Source: Octopus vulgaris | Taxonomy: Eukaryota | Length of the DNA stretch: 64,000 nt | Reading direction: 5' to 3' | NCBI GenBank assembly: GCA_951406725.2 | Contig: OX597818.1 | Span: 56,978,001 to 57,042,000, forward strand | Shown here: positions 1-48,855 of the stretch, in pieces | How positions within the stretch are numbered: the first letter of the stretch is position 1 | How the letters are laid out: each line of letters starts with the position of its first letter | Program-made: the position numbers and the translations under genes | The notes under the pieces: generated by a model | What the model was told of the DNA's origin: nothing | Databases searched by the model: none | What the model saw: the letters and a program-made list of their open reading frames with translations, nothing else

Positions 1-556
1 TTAACCACTACATGGGCAATTATGGAGTGAATTTTAGGGCTTATAAATCTAATATTTTCTTATCCTTCCTTAATACCAGATATGATTACATGAAAGAGGC
101 AGAAATGGTTCAGAAATGGCAGAAATGCCTTGTGGTTCCTTTTCATTATGACTTCAAAACATTCTGAATTTAAAATTGCTTCAGGGTTTGAATGATAAAT
201 TCTAATTAAGACCTGGGGATCAATTAAGTAATTTACTAACCTATATTTTTCTTTCACTCCATCATAAATTTGTGATGTCGACCTTAGGTTAGAAATATGC
301 ATTGTAAGAAAGAAGTTGATAGTAGAATTAGGTGAGTGTCAGAGAAAATTCTGGCAAATGGTAGAATTATACACATTAAAAAAAAATTTCCATTCTGAAA
401 AGATGCAAACCTTTCTAAGTTTCGCTTTAAACTTTCATTTTTTTTTTTAAATGTCATTTTCTAAAACTGTAAACAGGATGTTAGTTCTTTTCCGCTTTAG
501 GCAGGGCGGAGACATTATAACGTTAAAATAAAATTTATTTAAGGAAAATAGTTTTT

Positions 557-6180: not shown

Positions 6181-6282
6181 CCAGTTACTCCTACAAAGCC
6201 TGTTGTGTTCGCTGACTGGGTTGCAGGAGTAAGTCCACCAGATGCTGAAACGATAAACAAACACGTGCATAACATGGTGGAG
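6181..6282 (+). CDS. RasGRP: RasGRP exon: PVTPTKPVVFADWVAGVSPPDAETINKHVHNMVE (GEF-EF linker)
   Basis: tgttttgcag acceptor and gtaagt donor at 6283; 102 nt, phase 0/0. Matches the RasGRP TPSKPPVVVDWASGV...KHVQRMV linker. Confidence 0.93.
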
Positions 6283-6295
6283 GTAAGTTTCTTTA

Positions 6296-7161
6296 CAGTT
6301 CTATATTTAAGAGATGAGGAATTATGAACATTATTTACATTGTTTACATTTGACGGATGTTTGTCCTCATTTTGTTTGTTGTTAACACAGCGTTTCGGCT
6401 GATATACCCTCCAGCCTTCTTCAGGTGTCTTGGAGAAATTTCAAACCTGGGTTCTCATTCCTAAAAGGATTTGAAAATATTAGATTTATAAGCCCTAAAA
6501 TTCACTCCATTATTGCCTACAAGCATATGGCGTAGTGGTTAAGAGCACGGGTTACTAACCCTAAGATTCTGAGTTCAATTCCAGGCAGATATTAATAATA
6601 ATAATGTTTAGTCTTGGTATAAAAGATGGGCTACAGATTTGACCATAACCAGTTGAGCATCATGTCCTGTAGTGATGATATGATGATATGAGCAGAAGTA
6701 GTAGGGGAGCATCATAGTAGCAGAAGTAGTAGCGGAGCCATGTGTTGAGAGGGATTATTTGGGGTTTGAATAATTGACCTCTGGATATCCTTAGACAACC
6801 CTTATTCAGAGACCTTTTGAACAGGATGGGTTACTCAACCAGAATAAAATTCTAACTGGGCTCCACCTGCAAGGTCATGTGCTATTTATCTTGCACATAT
6901 GGTTGTGGTGCATGTGCCTGGTGTACCCTTATCAGACGGTTAGTCATGATGGGTATATCGGGCTATGTATATTTGTACCCCAGGATCACTTTGATGGCAT
7001 GAACTGCTCTCTCACTCAACAATAATAATAACAATAATAATAATAATAATAATAAATACCTTAGGAATGAGAATCCAGGAGGGTATATCAGCCAAAACGC
7101 TGTGTTAACAGCAAACAAGAAGAGGACAAATATCTGTCGAATGTAAATAATATAAATAATA
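6296..7161. mobile_element. Penelope-like composite insertion A: inverted hammerhead-like termini flanking a tRNA-like head, (AAT)n and a nested repeat
   Basis: Left arm 6296-6463 is the reverse complement of right arm 7057-7161, which has an internal deletion. tRNA-like A box tggcgtagtgg at 6528 and B box gagttcaattcc at 6571. Imperfect 12-bp TSD taagtttcttta/taagtttctatg. Confidence 0.65.
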
Positions 7162-7740
7162 TAAGTTTCTATGTAAAATGTCACAAATAAATGAGGATTC
7201 ACTCACACATGCATAGACACACAAACTCCTTGCCCCACAGCCATGCCTACACCTGTGTACAAGAGTGAAACTAAGTCCTAGAGTTGTTATCATCACCTAT
7301 AAACCTATGGATGCGATGCTCCAGCATGACTGATCTAGATTGCTTGAAACCAGTAAAAATGTATAGAATATGTGTGTGTGTGTGTGTGTAGTGGATCCAG
7401 GTCACGTAATGTGGAGTAAGGCATGAAATGATGAGAAAGTAAGGAAGGTGTGTGATTTCCATAGCTTTTCGAATGGACTCCCTGCCAGCTTTTGATATTG
7501 GCCATGGAAAGAATTTGACATTTGTTTTCTCATGTAACAGTGGGAGTGGGGGTGGTGGCGGTGAGAGTGGTGTTTTGATAGATAGATATATAGATAGAGA
7601 TAGATAGAGAGAGACAGAGTAAGAGACACAGAGAGAAGAAAATGACTTCAACAGTTAACTCCCTTGTGGGTTTTTCTTATGAAATAGCTCTGTTGACATG
7701 GAAAAAAAAAATAGGACAAATATCTTAAATTCCAGATGCA

Positions 7741-8332: not shown

Positions 8333-10373
8333 AACCAGGACAAAACAGACAAAAGGGTCCCTGCTGCAGCTCTCCAGCTTGCCAGCTCCAGTCAAACTGT
8401 CCAACCCATGCCAGCATGGAAAACAGACATTAAATGATGAGAGAAGTGTCCATGTGCCAGGTGAGAGATTGGAGTATAGTTAAGGGGTGGCTACCCTTCA
8501 TCTTCTACACCCCTGTGTAGAAGATGAAGGGTAGAAACAGAAGACAGAATAAGAATGGGGACAGGACAATGATTTTTTGGGAGTTTTCAGTTTTATTGAC
8601 TGGAATTCAAATTAAAAATTTAAGAAATAAGAAAACCAAAAAGGATGTGTAGTCAAGAAACCTGCTTCCCAACCACATGGTTCTGGGTTCAGTCCCATGG
8701 CATGGCACCTTGGGCAAGTATCTTCTACTACAGTCCTTAACTGACCAAATCATGTAAGTGGATTTGTTACATAGAAATGTCCCCGCGTCCCCCTATCACT
8801 TAACAACAAATGACTGACTCCTGTGCTGGTGGCACATAAAAAGCACCATTCGAGCATGATCGTTGCCAGTGCCACCTGACTGGCTCACATGCTGCTGGCA
8901 CGTAAAAAGCACCTTTCAAGCATGGTCGATGCCAGTACTGCCTGACTGGCCCCCATGCCAGTGGCATGTAAAAAGCACCCACTGCACTCCCAGAGTGGTT
9001 GGTATTAGGAAGGGCATCCAACTGTAGAAACATTGCCAATCCCCAGTCACACCATCAAACCCATGCCAGCATGGAAAGCGGATGTTAAATGACGATGAAG
9101 ATGATGATGAAATTGTGTGAAATCCTGTCACATATGGGCATGTGTGAAGCCCTACTGACAACTGCTGTTGGTTTGTTTACACCCCTGTAACTATCAGACT
9201 TAAAAAATAAGTACTCAGGTAAAAACCACCAACTGATTTGTGGCCGTTGCCAGCCTCCTCTGGCACCTGTGCTGGTGGCACGTAAAAAGCACCATCCGTA
9301 TGTGGTCGATGCCAGCGTCACATTGACTGGCTTCTGTACCAGTGGCACGTATAAAACACCAACTGATCGTGGCCGTTTGCCAGCCTCCCCTGGCACCTGT
9401 GCCAGTGACACGTAAAAAGCACCCACTACACTCACAGAGTGGTTGATGATGATGATGATGTAGATTTCTTTGACTTAATCCTTCAAGGTAGTGCCCCAGC
9501 ATGGTCACAGTCCAATGACTGAAACAAATAAAAGATGAAAGATAAAAAAAAAAACTTAGCAAAAAAAAAAGATAAAATTTAAAAACATAACAAACAATGA
9601 AAATAAACTAGAAAGATTATTATAAAATGCAAAACACTACATAAAAAATGCAACTCTCATGTTTGCTGGAATGAAAAACAAGCTTCTTTAATTCTTAAAT
9701 GTAATAAAAATTGTTATGCATCTTATGAAACCATATCATAGATGTATACCAAGTGCACGATCAACCTTATTGCATTTAAACTAGCCATGTAGGTGCAGAT
9801 AAGCAGCTTGCTTCCCAACCACAGGCTTCCTGGGTTCAGTCCCACTGCATGGTACCTTGGGTAAGTATCTTCTGCTATAGCTTAAGGCCGACCAAAGCCT
9901 TCTGAGTGGATTTGGTAGACAGAAACTGAAAGAAGCCCGTCGTATACATACATACACATATATATATATATATATATTGTTGGCATCTTTTTGTCTCGGG
10001 AGATAATGGAGTTGCGCATAAACTAATCCAGTCTGGTTTTTACATTTCGTGTCCTCTCCTGTTTCCTTTCCAGTCTTGCGCTGACCAGGGCTGGATGTAA
10101 GAAAATCCTGGGTAGCCCAATCGTCAGGGTTCCTCTCCCGACCTTGCTGACATAGTCAAAAGGAGTGCAGAGCATTACGTTTGGCACCAGCTTGGTTGCA
10201 GGAGCTGCCAGAAGAGTGTCGAGTCGAACACTAAACCGCCTATGGGGCTCCGCTCTGGTATGGATAGGGGCCCATACCGGGTACTGTCAGCCGGAACCAG
10301 CTGAGCCTGAGACTTGTGTCAGGCAGGGTCGTCGCTCCCTGAAGTAGTGAAGAAAATCACCACCCACTACCTT

Positions 10374-10412
<39 letters not shown>

Positions 10413-10702
10413 TGTGATCACATGACCGACCAGACCATCAGATGTTGCTACACATCGCTAGTCACAATGTGCTTCGCATTGTTTTAGCCTTTGAATGACG
10501 CCACCCCGCTGGCTAAGCGAGCAGGCCAACAGAAGAAAGAGTGGGAGAAAGAGTGGTGAAAGAGTACAGCAGGGATCACCACCCTCTGCCAGAGCCTCGT
10601 GGAGCTTTTAGGTGGGAATCGAAATGTGATCCTACGACCGCGAGTCTGCTGCTCTAACCACTGGGCCATTGCGCCTCCACATATATATTTATACACACAC
10701 AC

Positions 10703-10745
<43 letters not shown>

Positions 10746-10746
10746 A

Positions 10747-11620
10747 GCTGGACCTAAGAAGCATCAGTTGTGGTGTGCAAGAGAGACGTTTGCGCTGGTA
10801 TGGTCATGTGGCGAGAATGGATGAAGATAGTTGTGTGAAAAAGTGCCACACCCTAGCGGTTGAGGGAACCTGTGGAAGAGGCAGACCCAGGAAAACCTGG
10901 GACGAGGTGGTGAAGCACGACCTTCGAACTTTAGGTCTCACTGAGGAAATGACTAGAGACCGAGACCTCTGGAAGTGTGCTGTGCGCGAGAAGACCCGGC
11001 AGGACAAGTGAGTCCATAACCCGTGGCCTTCTACATGGGATGGAGCCAGCCTACGTATGCATACCTTCCCTTCTTGGGACACAAAACTCTACTTGTGAAG
11101 ACGTGATGAGGCAAGTGAGGATCAGAATCGAAATCGATCAATGGAAATTGCGGATGTGCTACCAGTGCCGGTGGCATGTCAAAACTCTGCTTGTGAAGAC
11201 CCGTTGAGGCAAGTGACGATCAGTATCGAAATCGATCAATGGAAATCGATCAATGGAAATTGCAGATGTGTTACCAGTGCCGGTGGCATGTAAGAGAACT
11301 TTCCGTTTCGCGACTGTTGCCAGCACCACCCCGTTTCGTGTCCGTTGCCAGCCTCGCCTGGCCCTCGTGCCGGTGGCACATAAAAAGCACCATCCGTTCG
11401 TGGCCGTTTGCCAGCTCTGTCTGGCACCAGTGCGGGTGGCACGTAAAAAGCACCCACTACACTCACGGAGTGGTTGGCGTTAGGAAGGGCATCCAGCCGT
11501 AGAAACACTGCCAGATTTGACTGGGCCTGATGAAGCCTTCTGGCTTCACAGACCCCAGTAGAACCGTCCAACCCATGCTAGCATGGAAAGCGGACGCTAA
11601 ACGATGATGATGATGATGAT
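10747..11620 (+). mobile_element. 5'-truncated RTE-clade LINE: ORF C-terminus, 3' UTR with internal ~60-bp repeats, (GAT)n tail
   Basis: ERRLRWYGHVARMDEDSCVKK...GRGRPRKTWDEVVKHDL, then a UTR ending ggaagggcatccagccgtagaaa...gcatggaaagcggacgctaaac(gat)n. Confidence 0.85.
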
Positions 11621-13894: not shown

Positions 13895-14084
13895 GTAAGA
13901 ACTTGCATTTTATTTTCATTTTTGATTATTCATATGCAAATTTTTATGAAAATCATAATTTTTTGACTATTAAAATTTTGTCTATAGACACAGGTTTGGC
14001 TGTTTGGTTAAAAGTTTGCTGCCAGACCACAGGGTTCCGGGTTCAGTCTCACTGTGAGGCACCTTGGGCAGGTGTCTTCCATTA

Positions 14085-14710
14085 TAATCTTGGGTGCTCC
14101 AACTCCTTGTCTGTCTGGAAGACAAAGTCCCAGAGGATTTTTGCCTTCCCCTTTTCACCCATTACCTTTTCCGGTGTATGTTGGTGCCAAGTATCCGTAA
14201 CCTCATATCCATACTTACGGCATAGTAGCCAGTGGAGGTTTTGGGCTACTTTGTCGTGTCTACGCTTGTACTCTTTCTGCACAAGAATTTCACAAACACT
14301 AACAATGGGAGTCACGGTTTCAACCCTCTTCCCACACATTCTGCAGAAGTCTGTTGCACTTGTGTGGTAGATATTCTTTTTCACTGAATTAGTATTTAAT
14401 GCCTGGTCTTGGGCAGCGATGATTAGGCTTTCAGTATTCTTTTTCAGGTCAACCTTTAATAATTGCTTAACAATTGTTAAACCACCTCCATGAAGCTTCC
14501 TTGTCTTTTCATTTGTTGGTTTCATGTAGAGTAGGGTTTTTTTTCTCTCTTATTGGCTATTCTTGATCGGAATTCATGAGCACTCTCAAGTCCGTTTTAG
14601 TTAAATCCTTCTGCATTAGCAATCATACTGCAGCAGGTCTGGTTTGCTGTTTACCAAATATTCTGCCATGTTTCTTCTTTCACTGTTGATGCACTCCCAT
14701 ACACTAATCA
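14085..14710 (-). mobile_element. R4/Dong-clade (restriction-like endonuclease) non-LTR retrotransposon fragment
   Basis: LKKNTESLIIAAQDQALNTN...CRMCGKRVETVTPIVSVC...YKRRHDKVA...KILWDFVFQTDKELEH: degenerate CCHC knuckle, RHD motif and WD segment preceding the PD nuclease motif. Confidence 0.8.
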
Positions 14711-16412: not shown

Positions 16413-16543
16413 CTGTCTTTACCATTTTGTACTATTTTTTGCCATTCGTTATGTGGGTAAACTTTTAGATTGAATTACATGAAATTAAATGTCCTTGTGT
16501 TGCCTTTCCTCACTATTTTAACCCATTTATATATGAGATCGTA

Positions 16544-17011
16544 CAGTTCTATATTTAAGAGATGAGGAATTTATGTACATTATTTACATTCGACGGATAT
16601 TTGTTCTCATCTTGTTTGTTGTTAACACAACGTTTTGGCTGATATACCCTCCAGCCTTCATCAGGTGTCTTGGGGAAATTTTGAAATTATTATTATTATT
16701 TATTATTATTATTGTTATTTTTATTGTTATTGTTCAGGTCACTACCTGGAATTGAACTCGGAATCTTGGGGTTAGTGCTCTTAACCACTACACTATATGC
16801 CCATGGGCAATTATGGAGTGAATTTTTAATGCTTATAAATCTAATATTTTCCTATCCTTCCTTAATACCGGTATCTTAGGAATGAGAACCCAGGTTTGAA
16901 ATTTCCCCAATACACCTGATGAAGGCTGGAGGGATTAACAGCCGAAATGCTGTGTTAACAACAAACAAGATGAGGACAAATATCCGTCAAATGTAAATAA
17001 TGTAAATAATG
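16544..17011. mobile_element. Penelope-like composite insertion B (same family as A) with a perfect 12-bp TSD
   Basis: TSD tatgagatcgta at 16532-16543 and 17012-17023. Inverted arms 16544-16685 and 16870-17011 each carry CTGATGA-A-GGCTG...CAGCC-(G/A)AAA. Antisense tRNA-like head and (ATT)n lie between them. Confidence 0.75.
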
Positions 17012-17486
17012 TATGAGATCGTAGTTGTGGCCCAGTGTTGCATAACTGGCACATAAAAAGCACCCTTTGAACATTGGGCGATATGCTGCGTTTACGAAAA
17101 CCTGTCAAGTCAAATGAAATCTTAGTTGTGAATGATGTCAGTGCTGTCTGACTGGCATCTGTACCGGTGGCACGTAAAAAGGACCGTTTGAGGTGTTGTG
17201 CCTCATGAAGGCAGTGACAGGGGACTGAGACCTTTGGTGATATATCGTGTTTGAGAAGATCTGTGAAGCTTAATGAGGTAGTAGTTGTGGTCGATGTCAG
17301 TGTCATGTCAGTGGCACCTGTGCTGGTGGCACGTAAAAAAGCACCCACTACACTCTTGGAGTGGTTGGTGTTAGGAGGGGCATCCAGCTGTAGAAACTCT
17401 GTCAGATCAGATTGGAACTCCCTTGCTTACCAGTTTTCGGCCAAACCAACCAACCAATGGCAGCATGGAAAAACGGATGTTGTTGA

Positions 17487-22041: not shown

Positions 22042-22831
22042 AGAGTTCACAAAAAAATACAAAAGACAAAGACAGGTGGTGTACAAAACAAACAGATGTA
22101 TTAGTATAACGCTCAGGAATAGAAAAAGTCTTTTATGTTTCGAGCCTACGCTCTTCTACAGAAAGGGACACAGAAAAAACAAGGAGAGAAAAAAAAATGT
22201 GTGTAGTGGCTACCGATCTATCATGGCGAGGCGACTATATATATATATATATATAGTAGTTGTAGCCAGTGCTGCCTGATGGGCACCCATACAGGTGGCA
22301 TGTAATAAGCACCATTTGAGTGTGAGTTGATGCTAGTGTCAACTGGCTGGAAGTGTTATCATGTTCATTATTTTGTCTTGATATATAAAAGATGGGCTAC
22401 AGCAAACATTCTGCTCAATACCACAGATTTGCTTGTCAGTTGTTTGACCTTAAACGGTTGAGCATGTCCCTTAGTGGCTGACGATATGTGCATCTCTGAT
22501 CACGAGCAGAACAGCCATGTGTTGAGAGGGATTCTTTTGGGTTTGGATGATTCACCTTTGGAAACATGGGTGTTTCATTCAACATCCTTAAACAACCCTT
22601 AAACAAGGACCATTTGAATGGGATGAGCTACTCGACCTGAAAAAAATTCTGGGTTCCACCTGCAAGGTCATGCACTGTTTATCTTGATATGAGATCACCA
22701 TGTCGCGCACATATGGTTGTAATGCATGTGCCTGGTGTACCCTTATCAGACGGCTAGTCATGATGGGTATATTGGGTTTTGTATATTTGTACCCCAGTGT
22801 CACTTTGATGGTATGCACTGCTCTCTCACTC

Positions 22832-22866
<35 letters not shown>

Positions 22867-22928
22867 TATTAACTGTTATAATAAACTTGTATGTGTTCTA
22901 CATTTTCTCTTATGGTCTTTTCCTTCAG

Positions 22929-44122: not shown

Positions 44123-45332
44123 TCAGGCTGAGTAAAAAGTAAGCAAAGTTTTGAAACATGAAATTCGTCATAATATATTTCAACAATGCGAAAATTTATA
44201 CATCAAAGTAAGTACCATTACAATCAACACATTTTTGCTGAGTTACAAGTTTGTTTATTCCGGTAACATAAAAATTTAGAGTTCTGGAGCTGATGAACTC
44301 TTTAAATGCACTGTTAGCATCGGTTTGATTTTTGAACTCCTTCTCTTGCAGGAAACCCTCAAGGTGCTTGAAAAAGTGGTAGTTGGTAGGAGAAAGGTCT
44401 GGAGAATAAGCTGGGTGGGGAAGAACTTCATAGTTAAGTTCCCTCAATGTCTGGAGCATCATTAGTGAAATGTGTGATCCAGCATTGTCATGAAGAATGA
44501 TTGGCCCTCTTCTGTTGACCAGTCTGGGACAGACTGCTTTTCGTTCAATTTGGTCATTTCATAGCAATATGTTTCTGCAGTAATGGTTTCTCCAGGTTTT
44601 AAGAAGTAACAGTGGATGAATCCAGCTGTACACCACTAAACAGTCACCATATCCTTCTTGTTGAAGATTTCGGATTCAGGGAAGGTTTTCAGTGCTTCAT
44701 TTTGGTCCAACCACTGTGAAGAACATTTTTTATTATTGCACAAAATCCACTTTTCATTGCAAGTTACAATACAGGAAGAAATGGATCAGTCTGGTTATGG
44801 AGAAGAAGCGACTAGCAAATTTCATATCTGCACATTTTCTGATTTTCATTCAAATCATATATCCATTTGTCAAGCTTTTTTGACTTTCCAATCACATGCA
44901 AATGGTTGCAGGCAGTTTTCTGGCTAACTTGAAATTCTTTTGCCAGTTCTTGGGTGGTTTTACATGGATCTTTCTCAACGAGGGTCTTTAATTAATTGTC
45001 ATTAATGACAGATGGTCATTTCCTTATCAAATCATTGGTCATTTCCTCACCAAACGTTTCATTGATATCATGAGCAGTTTCAGCTGCTTTATGTCCTTTT
45101 TTTGGAGTTGAATAGCAAAATTGCTTGAATACTGTGCTTTGACAGTTCCATTTCAGATGATTGTAACAATGGTAAAAAAAAATCAATATTAATGTATTGA
45201 TACATTTGGGCAAGTCTATGTCTGTATTATCAGACAATTGCAAAACAGTGTTTAAAAAAATTCAAAATTCTGCAAAATTCCGGTACAAATTCTTCATGGT
45301 TCAAAACGTTGCTTACTTTTTACTCAATCTGA
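44123..45332 (-). mobile_element. Near full-length but inactive mariner (Tc1/mariner) DNA transposon
   Basis: ~40-bp TIRs (tcaggctgagtaaaaagtaagcaaagttttgaaacatgaa and its inverse ending at 45332), TA on both sides, 1210 bp. Frameshifted transposase with GHKAAETAHDINETFG, LHDNA and PHPAYSPDLSPTNYHFF. Confidence 0.9.
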
Positions 45333-47608: not shown

Positions 47609-48114
47609 CTCTGCTGTTGCTGCTGCGGTAATTGTTGCTATTGTGCCCGTTATTTATCATAGTTGTTGTGGAGGGACAGTGGTCAGTTACTTTAGCCAGT
47701 AATGTTGTAGTTTGGCTGGGACGCAGTATAGTTTCTGTTGGATACTGCATGCATGCATGTATGTATGTATGTATGTATATAATGTGTACATATTATTAGG
47801 TATATGTATGTGTATGTATGTATATATATATATCTCTATATATAAAACTGAAACGCGCTTGTTTGTTTGTTTGTTTGACTCGACCGCTTGGATCGCTTTC
47901 AGGGCCACTACATCCCGTCGGATTGACTCCAAAATTTACAGGGACATGTAAAAGGTGTCGTTGCTAGGGCCAAAAACCCACTTTGACAAGTCCACTCTCA
48001 GTCTTTTATGTATCTGTCTTCCTCACTCACTCTATTTCCTCCCTTCCCATCACTTTCTATATATAACGTTGATTCGTCAAACGGCGTTCATAACCACTTT
48101 CACACACTCTCTCT

Positions 48115-48855
48115 CTACACGATGTTGATAATGCCTGGATCGTTCCATTCAACCCTTTGCTTTCCAAAACATTTAATGCACACATTAATGTTGAGTACTG
48201 CAGTTCGGTGAGATGCATACAATACCTCTGCAAGTACATTAATAAGGGTGATGATATGGCCATGTTTGTGTTCAGTGATGAAGACCTTAGACATGACGAA
48301 ATTAAACAATTCGTTTTGGGTAGGTATGTATCCTCCAATTATGCAGCGTGGTGCATTTTTCGATACGAGATTCATCTAAGTTCACCATCAGTTTTCCACC
48401 TGAATGTTCATTTACAGAAGAGACAGCTGGTTTACTTCACAGAGAAAAATGCACGTCAACTCATTGAAAATCCGAAAGGGACTACGCTTACAGCGTTTTT
48501 TAAATTGTGTTCAGTTGAAGAGTTTGCTGCTACTCTCATTTACCCTGAAGTACCGGAATATTACACATACAACAACAATAATTGGAAGCGCAGGTCACAT
48601 GGAACAGAACTTGACAATTGGCCCAGTGTTTCTAGGAAGAACGTCATTGGGTGTGTGTATAATATTCATCCTACCAAACAGGAAATCTTCTTTTTGAGAA
48701 TGCTGCTTCTTGTAGTTATTGGACTGAAGTCTTTTGCTGATCTTCGCACGGTTGATGGTATCATCTGCGCCACTTACAGGGAAGCATGTTTGAGGCGTGG
48801 ACTACTTCTCAATGACGACCACTTACACAGGACATTAGCAGAGGCCTCAAAATGA
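48115..48855 (+). pseudogene. Helitron Rep/helicase internal fragment (uninterrupted ~245 codons)
   Basis: DNAWIVPFNPLL...AHINVEYC...YLCKYINKGDD...DEI...RYVS...AAW...LTAFF...FFLRMLL...SFADLRTVDG...TYREAC...GLL are the hallmark RepHel motifs. It lacks the Rep N-terminus and the PIF1 helicase. Confidence 0.88.

Follow-up and report, generated by a model that had tools for sequence, protein, structure and literature searches.

A dispersed octopus repeat family joins a tRNA-like head to a Penelope-type hammerhead arm

The repeats described here are best explained as copies of an abundant element that consists of a tRNA-like head, an (AAT)n tract, a linker and a Penelope-type hammerhead arm, and that is likely transcribed by RNA polymerase III (Pol III) and likely inserted by the reverse transcriptase-endonuclease of a Penelope-like element (PLE); we place the probability of this reading at roughly 0.65. 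Three copies lie in the window, i.e., the whole stretch of 64,000 nucleotides of Octopus vulgaris DNA that was analysed. Both complete copies in the window, as well as copies sampled in reads, bear the marks of PLE-type insertion, namely an inverted, 5'-truncated second copy and an optional tail.

Organization of the copies in the window

Copy 1 occupies 468 bp (16544-17011) between two exact copies of a 12-mer, at 16532-16543 and 17012-17023 on the plus strand, which occurs just these two times in the whole window and would be repeated at the flanks by chance with a probability of about 1e-7 per position. The perfect 12-bp target-site duplication of the preliminary description was thus recovered; the final 2 nt of its left member are also identical to the element's end. 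Read on the minus strand, copy 1 consists, in this order, of a tail-less inverted arm, a 70-nt extension, the tRNA-like head, (AAT)n and a tailed arm. The inverted arm (16875-17011, plus strand) contains a hammerhead motif, with C3 at 16916 and G12 at 16944, and all remaining parts have minus-strand orientation: the 5' extension that precedes the head (16803-16872), the head itself (16735-16802), the (AAT)n tract (16686-16734), and the 3', or sense, Penelope-type arm (16571-16685), from which the linker and the first 20-25 nt or so of the arm have been deleted in this copy. The sense arm contains a minimal type I hammerhead motif (16624-16669), with C3 at 16664 and a predicted cut between 16629 and 16628, and is followed by the optional 3' tail (16544-16570), recognised by comparison of the arms and by the two family ends at 6294-6296 and 6328. 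The two arms are 91% complementary over 111 nt (16571-16681 versus 16899-17009). It was indeed found, therefore, that a minus-strand segment containing A and B boxes continues across (AAT)n to a hammerhead terminus and that an inverted second terminus caps the other end, as had been claimed.

The same architecture had been noticed at 6296-7161, where we delimited a second complete copy (6294-7161) in the opposite orientation, flanked by a 9-bp duplication (6284-6292 and 7162-7170, plus strand). It begins with an inverted arm that carries the tail (6294-6464, minus strand; C3 of its hammerhead at 6424), followed on the plus strand by the 5' extension, defined by comparison of the copies (6465-6520), a head with a perfect A box (6528) and a perfect B box (6573) at 6521-6590, (AAT)n (6594-7056), and a tail-less sense arm (7057-7161) that has lost the 5' half of its hammerhead. 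In copy 1, therefore, the tail is on the sense arm only, and in copy 2 it is on the inverted arm. The (AAT)n of copy 2 is split by a second repeat of about 410 bp (about 6607-7017), itself (AAT)n-tailed and related to 22371-22868 with 77% identity over 360 nt. The internal segment reported to recur at 1 to about 80 proved to be a third copy (1-79, minus strand), cut by the window edge, which comprises the 5' extension and a deleted head start and has no arm at its 5' side. No further arm was found elsewhere in the window by nhmmer.

The 5' extension, 56-70 nt long, is common to all three copies. It includes a TATA-like motif some 30-35 nt before the head in copy 1, or more exactly 30-34 nt before the head's first base (6487-6491 in copy 2, and the equivalent positions), which is invariant in the three copies; this could be an upstream Pol III element of an extended sub-lineage, or a product of chance in AT-rich DNA. 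The possibility that the extension is a decayed inverted head was not supported, as 49 and 85 of 1000 shuffled sequences scored equally well.

Distribution of the family in reads and contigs

Two RNA runs from one study (X22 and X23; 8,764 and 7,154 reads) and two contig sets (X1 and X4; 29,658 and 20,719 records) were aligned to positions 6270-6612 of the window, which contain tail, arm, extension and head once each. The variants, joints and loose ends reported below are those with the best support: the top 40 among 133 variants, the top 15 among 206 joints and the top 24 among 1252 loose ends. Words of the element were found in twenty runs under three organism labels, the best of which held 52% of the words, and in two small-share metagenome rows; two insect-metagenome runs with a word share of 0.04 were left out and do not count as evidence. 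The copies belong to a large dispersed family and are not a local scar: with unique flank as the reference, contig depth came to about 2-3 x 10^4 over the head and to about 3-13 x 10^4 over the arm, values that convey an order of magnitude and no copy number.

Among the best 15 of 206 joints, 13 connect an inverted arm, cut at a total of 11 different points, to positions 6519-6528, and the head's first G bases often lie between the inverted arm and the head at this 5' joint. None of these 15 is a tandem joint, and the copies in the window are single units with inverted arms. Loose letters before 6523 (558 and 465 reads) match the reverse complement of the head at 18-19 of 20 positions by eye; that is, they represent full head-to-head pairs, to which fold-back in the RNA library could add, the contigs supporting only the nearest 10-14 letters. 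At its other end, the arm stops either at 6294-6296 or at 6328, next to unrelated flanks (agreement 0.40-0.51), which defines an optional tail of 32-34 nt. Beside the tail-less end (6327-6345 in the window, and the matching ends) is a 9-nt unit of variable copy number, with 544 of 2791 reads in one run and 459 of 2546 in the other showing a loss of 9 nt; slippage at a priming site may account for this variation. As a separate observation, A>G and T>C changes accounted for 47 of the 106 variant places in one RNA run and 56 of the 111 in the other, whereas in the contig sets their share was 13 and 15 of 47 (Fisher p 0.009-0.16); this suggests A-to-I editing of double-armed copies, although contigs drop minor variants and the samples differ.

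The tRNA-like head and its transcription

The only perfect pair of A and B boxes in the window is that in the head of copy 2; when one mismatch was allowed, the head of copy 1 (minus strand, 16802-16735) was added and nothing else, and no pair was found in 20 shuffles. In copy 1 the A box, from 16795, has the single mismatch, and the B box, from 16757, follows 27 nt on, with a 7-nt deletion relative to copy 2. No tRNA was called in the window by ARAGORN at default settings, nor by Rfam in the whole window and in both copies; ARAGORN called the heads only after its thresholds had been lowered, when it made 30-202 calls across the window, and these calls were not counted as evidence. The heads aligned to each of the three tRNAs tried better than 299-300 of 300 shuffled sequences did. 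The scores of the copy 2 head were 62 and 47 with tRNA-Arg and 48.5 with tRNA-Gly, so that Arg and Gly are not separated by them. When the pattern of the same head was run against a viral collection, both of its two matches were tRNA-Arg(ACG), although the wildcards had been chosen with tRNA-Arg in mind and the search was not blind. A comparison of the head with phage genomes returned three matches in unannotated DNA, which were dismissed as chance. Judged from sequence likeness, a tRNA-derived origin of the head is supported, and its isotype is likely Arg. Weaker head-like matches occur in the window at 8647, 49867, 60137, 31660, 1006 and other positions (nhmmer, E 0.017-0.8); by their sequence, they look like heads of a different, commoner SINE family.

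How the element is transcribed is where the chief rival to our reading arises. It takes the element to be what remains of a non-autonomous PLE, copied from RNA that Pol II made by read-through, with the tRNA-like piece as a passenger and the 5' hot spot of joints as a result of stalling or fold-back of the reverse transcriptase at a small hairpin; we consider it unlikely, even though it is favoured by the upstream extension. Present in all three window copies, the extension cannot come from a Pol III start at the head; its depth in RNA is about a third of that of the head, and it reaches still further upstream in X4 contigs. Furthermore, the RNA reads are even on both strands and have no defined ends, no starts pile up at the head in either RNA run, the bases around the 5' boundary form a short palindrome, and internal priming, as described for a PLE of Anolis (Frangieh et al., PMC11167929), would render any arm-containing RNA copyable. 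Against a passenger head, the hot spot, and with it the 5' boundary of the unit, falls on tRNA position 1, 7 nt before the A box; moreover, the A and B boxes have been kept, and the sense strand contains no run of four T. Since T-runs on that strand never exceed three in the segments checked, we infer that Pol III starting at the head would be able to read through, and Pol III transcription remains our preferred reading.

Linkage of head and arm

The composition of the unit was deduced from reads that overlap its successive parts. Among the best 24 of 1252 loose ends, the letters 3' of the head are a 7-nt spacer followed by (AAT)n (676 and 513 reads), and the letters before the arm are (AAT)n followed by a fixed short linker (748 and 612 reads). 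Direct bridges between head and arm were provided by 186 reads from 76 starts in one RNA run and 121 reads from 56 starts in the other, and by 2 contigs in each DNA run. These results together define a unit of head, (AAT)n, linker and arm of about 270 nt. Bridging reads made up 22% and 19% of the reads at head ends; linkage of all heads would be expected to give 16-54%, depending on tract length. Many heads are linked to an arm, possibly most; the proposed connection of the tRNA-like part to the hammerhead terminus thus holds for many copies, with a share that is bracketed by these percentages.

It is improbable, and more so than the Pol II remnant, that two separate elements are involved, i.e., a plain tRNA-(AAT)n SINE and PLE ends that repeatedly entered its (AAT)n by means of an endonuclease preferring ATT. 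Such an origin would accord with the ATT motifs that the Anolis PLE is reported to cut (Frangieh et al., PMC11167929), with the entry of another repeat into the (AAT)n of copy 2, with a linked share that is only bracketed, and with an arm depth about twice the head depth. It is difficult to reconcile with the single duplication that surrounds the whole composite in both complete copies, or with the inverted arms, which join the head's 5' end at 11 truncation points (best 15 of 206 joints) with no (AAT)n in between. Where the arm does follow (AAT)n, it begins at the fixed linker and not at variable points, in keeping with the single composite unit that we favour.

The hammerhead motif

Three arms in the window fold into a hammerhead with a stem I of 4-5 bp and a stem II of 5-6 bp (z -1.7 to -2.0), and have a bulged base after A9 (9/10.1), a G10.1-C11.1 pair, and a palindromic CG (15.2-16.2) that replaces stem III. 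These are the features by which the minimal hammerheads of PLEs are described by Cervera and De la Pena (PMC4209133): a short helix I, a bulged 9/10.1 position, G10.1-C11.1 and a palindromic 15.2-16.2. No hammerhead was found by Rfam, either at the gathering score in the whole window or by E-value in the two copies, and a relaxed descriptor gave 4 matches in the window against a mean of 0.97 (maximum 3) in 30 shuffles. As the descriptor result is weak when taken alone, the case for the motif is made by its close agreement, feature by feature, with the form published for PLEs, and by the majority of the family.

All four arms deviate from the core, as the preliminary description had cautioned. 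In copy 1, the sense arm has G12>A (16636) and the inverted arm has C15.2>U and U16.1>C; in copy 2, the inverted arm has U16.1>C (6390) and the sense arm is without the CUGANGA half. The C at 16.1, found in three of the four window arms, runs against the majority of reads, 2568 of 3275 (78%) and 2018 of 2640 (76%) of which have U16.1 in the two RNA runs. Among the best 40 of 133 variants, core losses in reads affected G12 (22-23%), C11.1 (15-19%), C15.2 (26-27%) and G16.2 (12-14%), and no other position of the catalytic core varied. These four positions sit on two CpG pairs, and the defects at G12 and C15.2 in the window can thus be attributed to CpG decay. In addition, about 11% of reads have a 3-nt deletion at 6390. 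Considering that C16.1 is present in three of four window arms and the 5' extension in all three copies, the data suggest a sub-lineage with a damaged ribozyme that nevertheless spread. In the family as a whole, the core is majority-intact at the positions seen; no stem covariation was seen among the best 40 of 133 variants.

Cleavage of the element as a dimer, which had been part of the retrozyme interpretation, did not survive analysis. The second arm, a product of insertion in inverted orientation, lies on the opposite strand, leaving a single hammerhead per transcript, and an RNA across copy 1 is predicted to fold arm on arm at -191 kcal/mol, as opposed to -50.5 kcal/mol when the inverted arm is held open; in such a duplex, the two arms would be unable to act as a cleaving dimer. 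Dimer cleavage in cis was ruled out on these grounds of geometry and folding. In neither RNA run did starts or ends pile up anywhere on 6270-6612, a weak negative for self-cleavage or circular RNA. It is therefore very doubtful that the element is a non-LTR retrozyme spreading as circular RNA after dimeric hammerhead cleavage, despite its type I minimal hammerhead with a majority-intact core, its similar size, and the published link between retrozymes and PLEs. Retrozymes are defined by tandem repeats, whereas the copies here are dispersed and inverted, with one hammerhead per strand that would be hidden in the arm-arm duplex; furthermore, of the 11 truncation points, only 6389 is no more than 1 nt away from the predicted cut, and it is not a dominant one (best 15 of 206 joints). 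In the Anolis PLE, hammerhead mutants are reported to insert normally and no RNA-seq reads to end at the cut site (Frangieh et al., PMC11167929). The hammerhead of the octopus element is likely inherited from a PLE and is probably dispensable for insertion.

A hammerhead pattern searched in metagenomes returned four loci, all of other families, with no tRNA and, when their ORFs were read, no evident PLE ORF. Hammerhead motifs of other animals differ at the sixth pair of stem II, the remaining positions being fixed by the search pattern. Three of the loci (L001 2737-2892, L002 722-865 and L004 1755-1884) constitute another dispersed family, having 130-146 nt in common; the shared stretch opens with a minimal hammerhead whose stem II base is the same, and the flanks differ. 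These stretches are likely the PLE end-pieces of another animal.

Insertion by a Penelope-type enzyme

Craig et al. (10.1101/2021.04.23.441226) name two marks of PLE insertion, a neighbouring copy that is inverted and 5'-truncated, and a tail of 30-40 bp at one of the ends, the latter not being seen in LINE priming. For the Anolis PLE, Frangieh et al. (PMC11167929) describe nicking of both strands at AT-rich sites and two internal start sites of reverse transcription that bracket the tail. The full arm of the octopus element extends beyond the predicted cut by 85 nt in copy 1 and by 95 nt in copy 2; for the start region of the Anolis PLE, the distance given in that source is 85-92 nt.

We propose the following course for the preferred, PLE-dependent reading. 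Pol III would start at the head and read through the element, and a PLE protein would bind the arm and nick both strands of the target. Reverse transcription would then be primed inside the RNA at either of two sites, producing an end with or without the tail, and the copies made from the two target ends would join at their 5' ends, one of them often shortened. With internal priming, the RNA would need neither poly(A) nor a defined 3' end, and the scheme would fit a Pol III RNA whose 3' trailer is random. Of the earlier suggestion of a non-autonomous, Pol III-driven 'ribozyme-SINE' or retrozyme moved by Penelope machinery, we thus retain a family of linked head and hammerhead with PLE-type insertion marks, and give up the retrozyme. 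A 23-mer of the arm had no match in metagenome and viral contigs, where no autonomous PLE with this arm was found, and no Penelope-like domain was found in the three window ORFs scanned with Pfam. The long inverted arms, flanking duplication and absence of an ORF would also suit a MITE-like DNA transposon with long terminal inverted repeats, but this is largely excluded by duplications of unequal size (12 versus 9 bp), unequal arms, a tail whose position on the sense or the inverted arm differs between the copies, and the many points at which inverted arms are cut.

Relation to known elements

In its behaviour the element resembles the product of a PLE insertion, and in its construction a tRNA SINE. 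With endonuclease-positive PLEs that carry minimal hammerheads in their pseudo-LTRs (Cervera and De la Pena 2014; Craig 2021; Frangieh 2024), as these are described, it shares the hammerhead architecture, the inverted 5'-truncated partner, the 30-40-nt optional tail on one end and AT-rich targets; it differs in having no ORF and in a fixed 5' end marked by the putatively tRNA-derived A/B-box head, and no donor PLE was found in metagenome and viral contigs. With tRNA-derived SINEs as characterised in SINEBase (PMC3531059), it shares a short length (<700 bp), non-autonomy, a tRNA head with internal promoter boxes, dispersal, variable duplications and a high copy number. In contrast to them, its 3' part is of Penelope type and not LINE-derived, its simple repeat is internal, and its insertions are often inverted pairs.

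The nearest precedent is Sm-alpha of Schistosoma, which, like Sj-alpha, is described as a SINE-like repeat with a Pol III-type promoter followed by a type I hammerhead (PMC6765202, PMC8490949). According to the same sources, however, Sm-alpha is tandem, and its active ribozyme frees units from multimers and leaves the promoter at the 3' end; the motif found here is minimal and the copies are inverted, and neither a PLE partner nor a tail nor an inversion is named in the accessible descriptions of Sm-alpha. Animal non-LTR retrozymes (PMC7229834; bioRxiv 10.64898/2026.07.22.740005) are also short non-coding hammerhead repeats for which PLE enzymes have been proposed, but they are tandem repeats that give rise to circular RNA (PMC7229834), and the available text of the bioRxiv paper contains no mention of tRNA, promoter or polymerase III. 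Goubert et al. note a possible dependence of retrozymes on PLEs, by which they could be regarded as SINEs of a new type. In the TRIMp3 elements Cassandra, Helenus and Ajax (Kojima, PMC10886601), a Pol III promoter derived from a small RNA has similarly been captured by a non-autonomous retroelement outside the LINE system; there, however, the machinery is that of LTR elements, and Penelope is not mentioned in the accessible text.

A tRNA-headed, PLE-dependent SINE was not reported in the open literature that was covered, subscription journals, Repbase Reports, Dfam and the Zenodo library of PMC13282606 being outside that scope. The sequence may already be catalogued, and a family so abundant is probably present in de novo libraries.

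Octopus SINEs named OK, OR1 and OR2, which Ohshima and Okada reportedly described in 1994, are said to have tRNA-derived heads, those of OR1 and OR2 being of Arg origin. Compared with them by description alone, the present element differs in having only 7 nt between the head and (AAT)n. One of the two, OR1 or OR2, is cited as a CORE-SINE, the citing sources disagreeing on which.

Significance

SINEs are defined as LINE-dependent in SINEBase (PMC3531059), that is, as passengers of LINEs, and a tRNA-headed family with a PLE insertion signature would extend this definition. It is a tentative proposal, to which we give somewhat less than an even chance, that the octopus family, with its tens of thousands of copies, consists of genuine Pol III SINEs, is dependent on PLEs and not on LINEs, has not yet been recognised as such, and would complete a series with the LINE-SINE and LTR-TRIMp3 systems; under the same proposal, a sub-lineage may carry the upstream TATA-like element, by way of internal priming and of double-armed copies being copied from either strand. 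If copied by PLEs, the family would provide tRNA-derived SINEs with a helper outside the LINE class, and the minimal cis signal for Penelope enzymes would map to about 170 nt, with very many natural insertion products at hand. These would offer a direct handle on two questions, namely how PLE inversions and tails are formed and how important the hammerhead of the pseudo-LTR is. Similar families may hide under the 'unclassified SINE' and 'Penelope' entries of automated libraries; the annotation of Octopus vulgaris is reported to include 893 recently active unclassified SINE families.

Other mobile-element remnants in the window

Decayed transposon ORF fragments are located at 44196-44558, 10658-11011, 14082-14549 and 48094-48855. 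Three window ORFs were scanned with Pfam, and one of the fragments gave a weak match to DDE_3; the remaining ones may be pieces of RTE, R4/Dong and Helitron elements, which they resemble.
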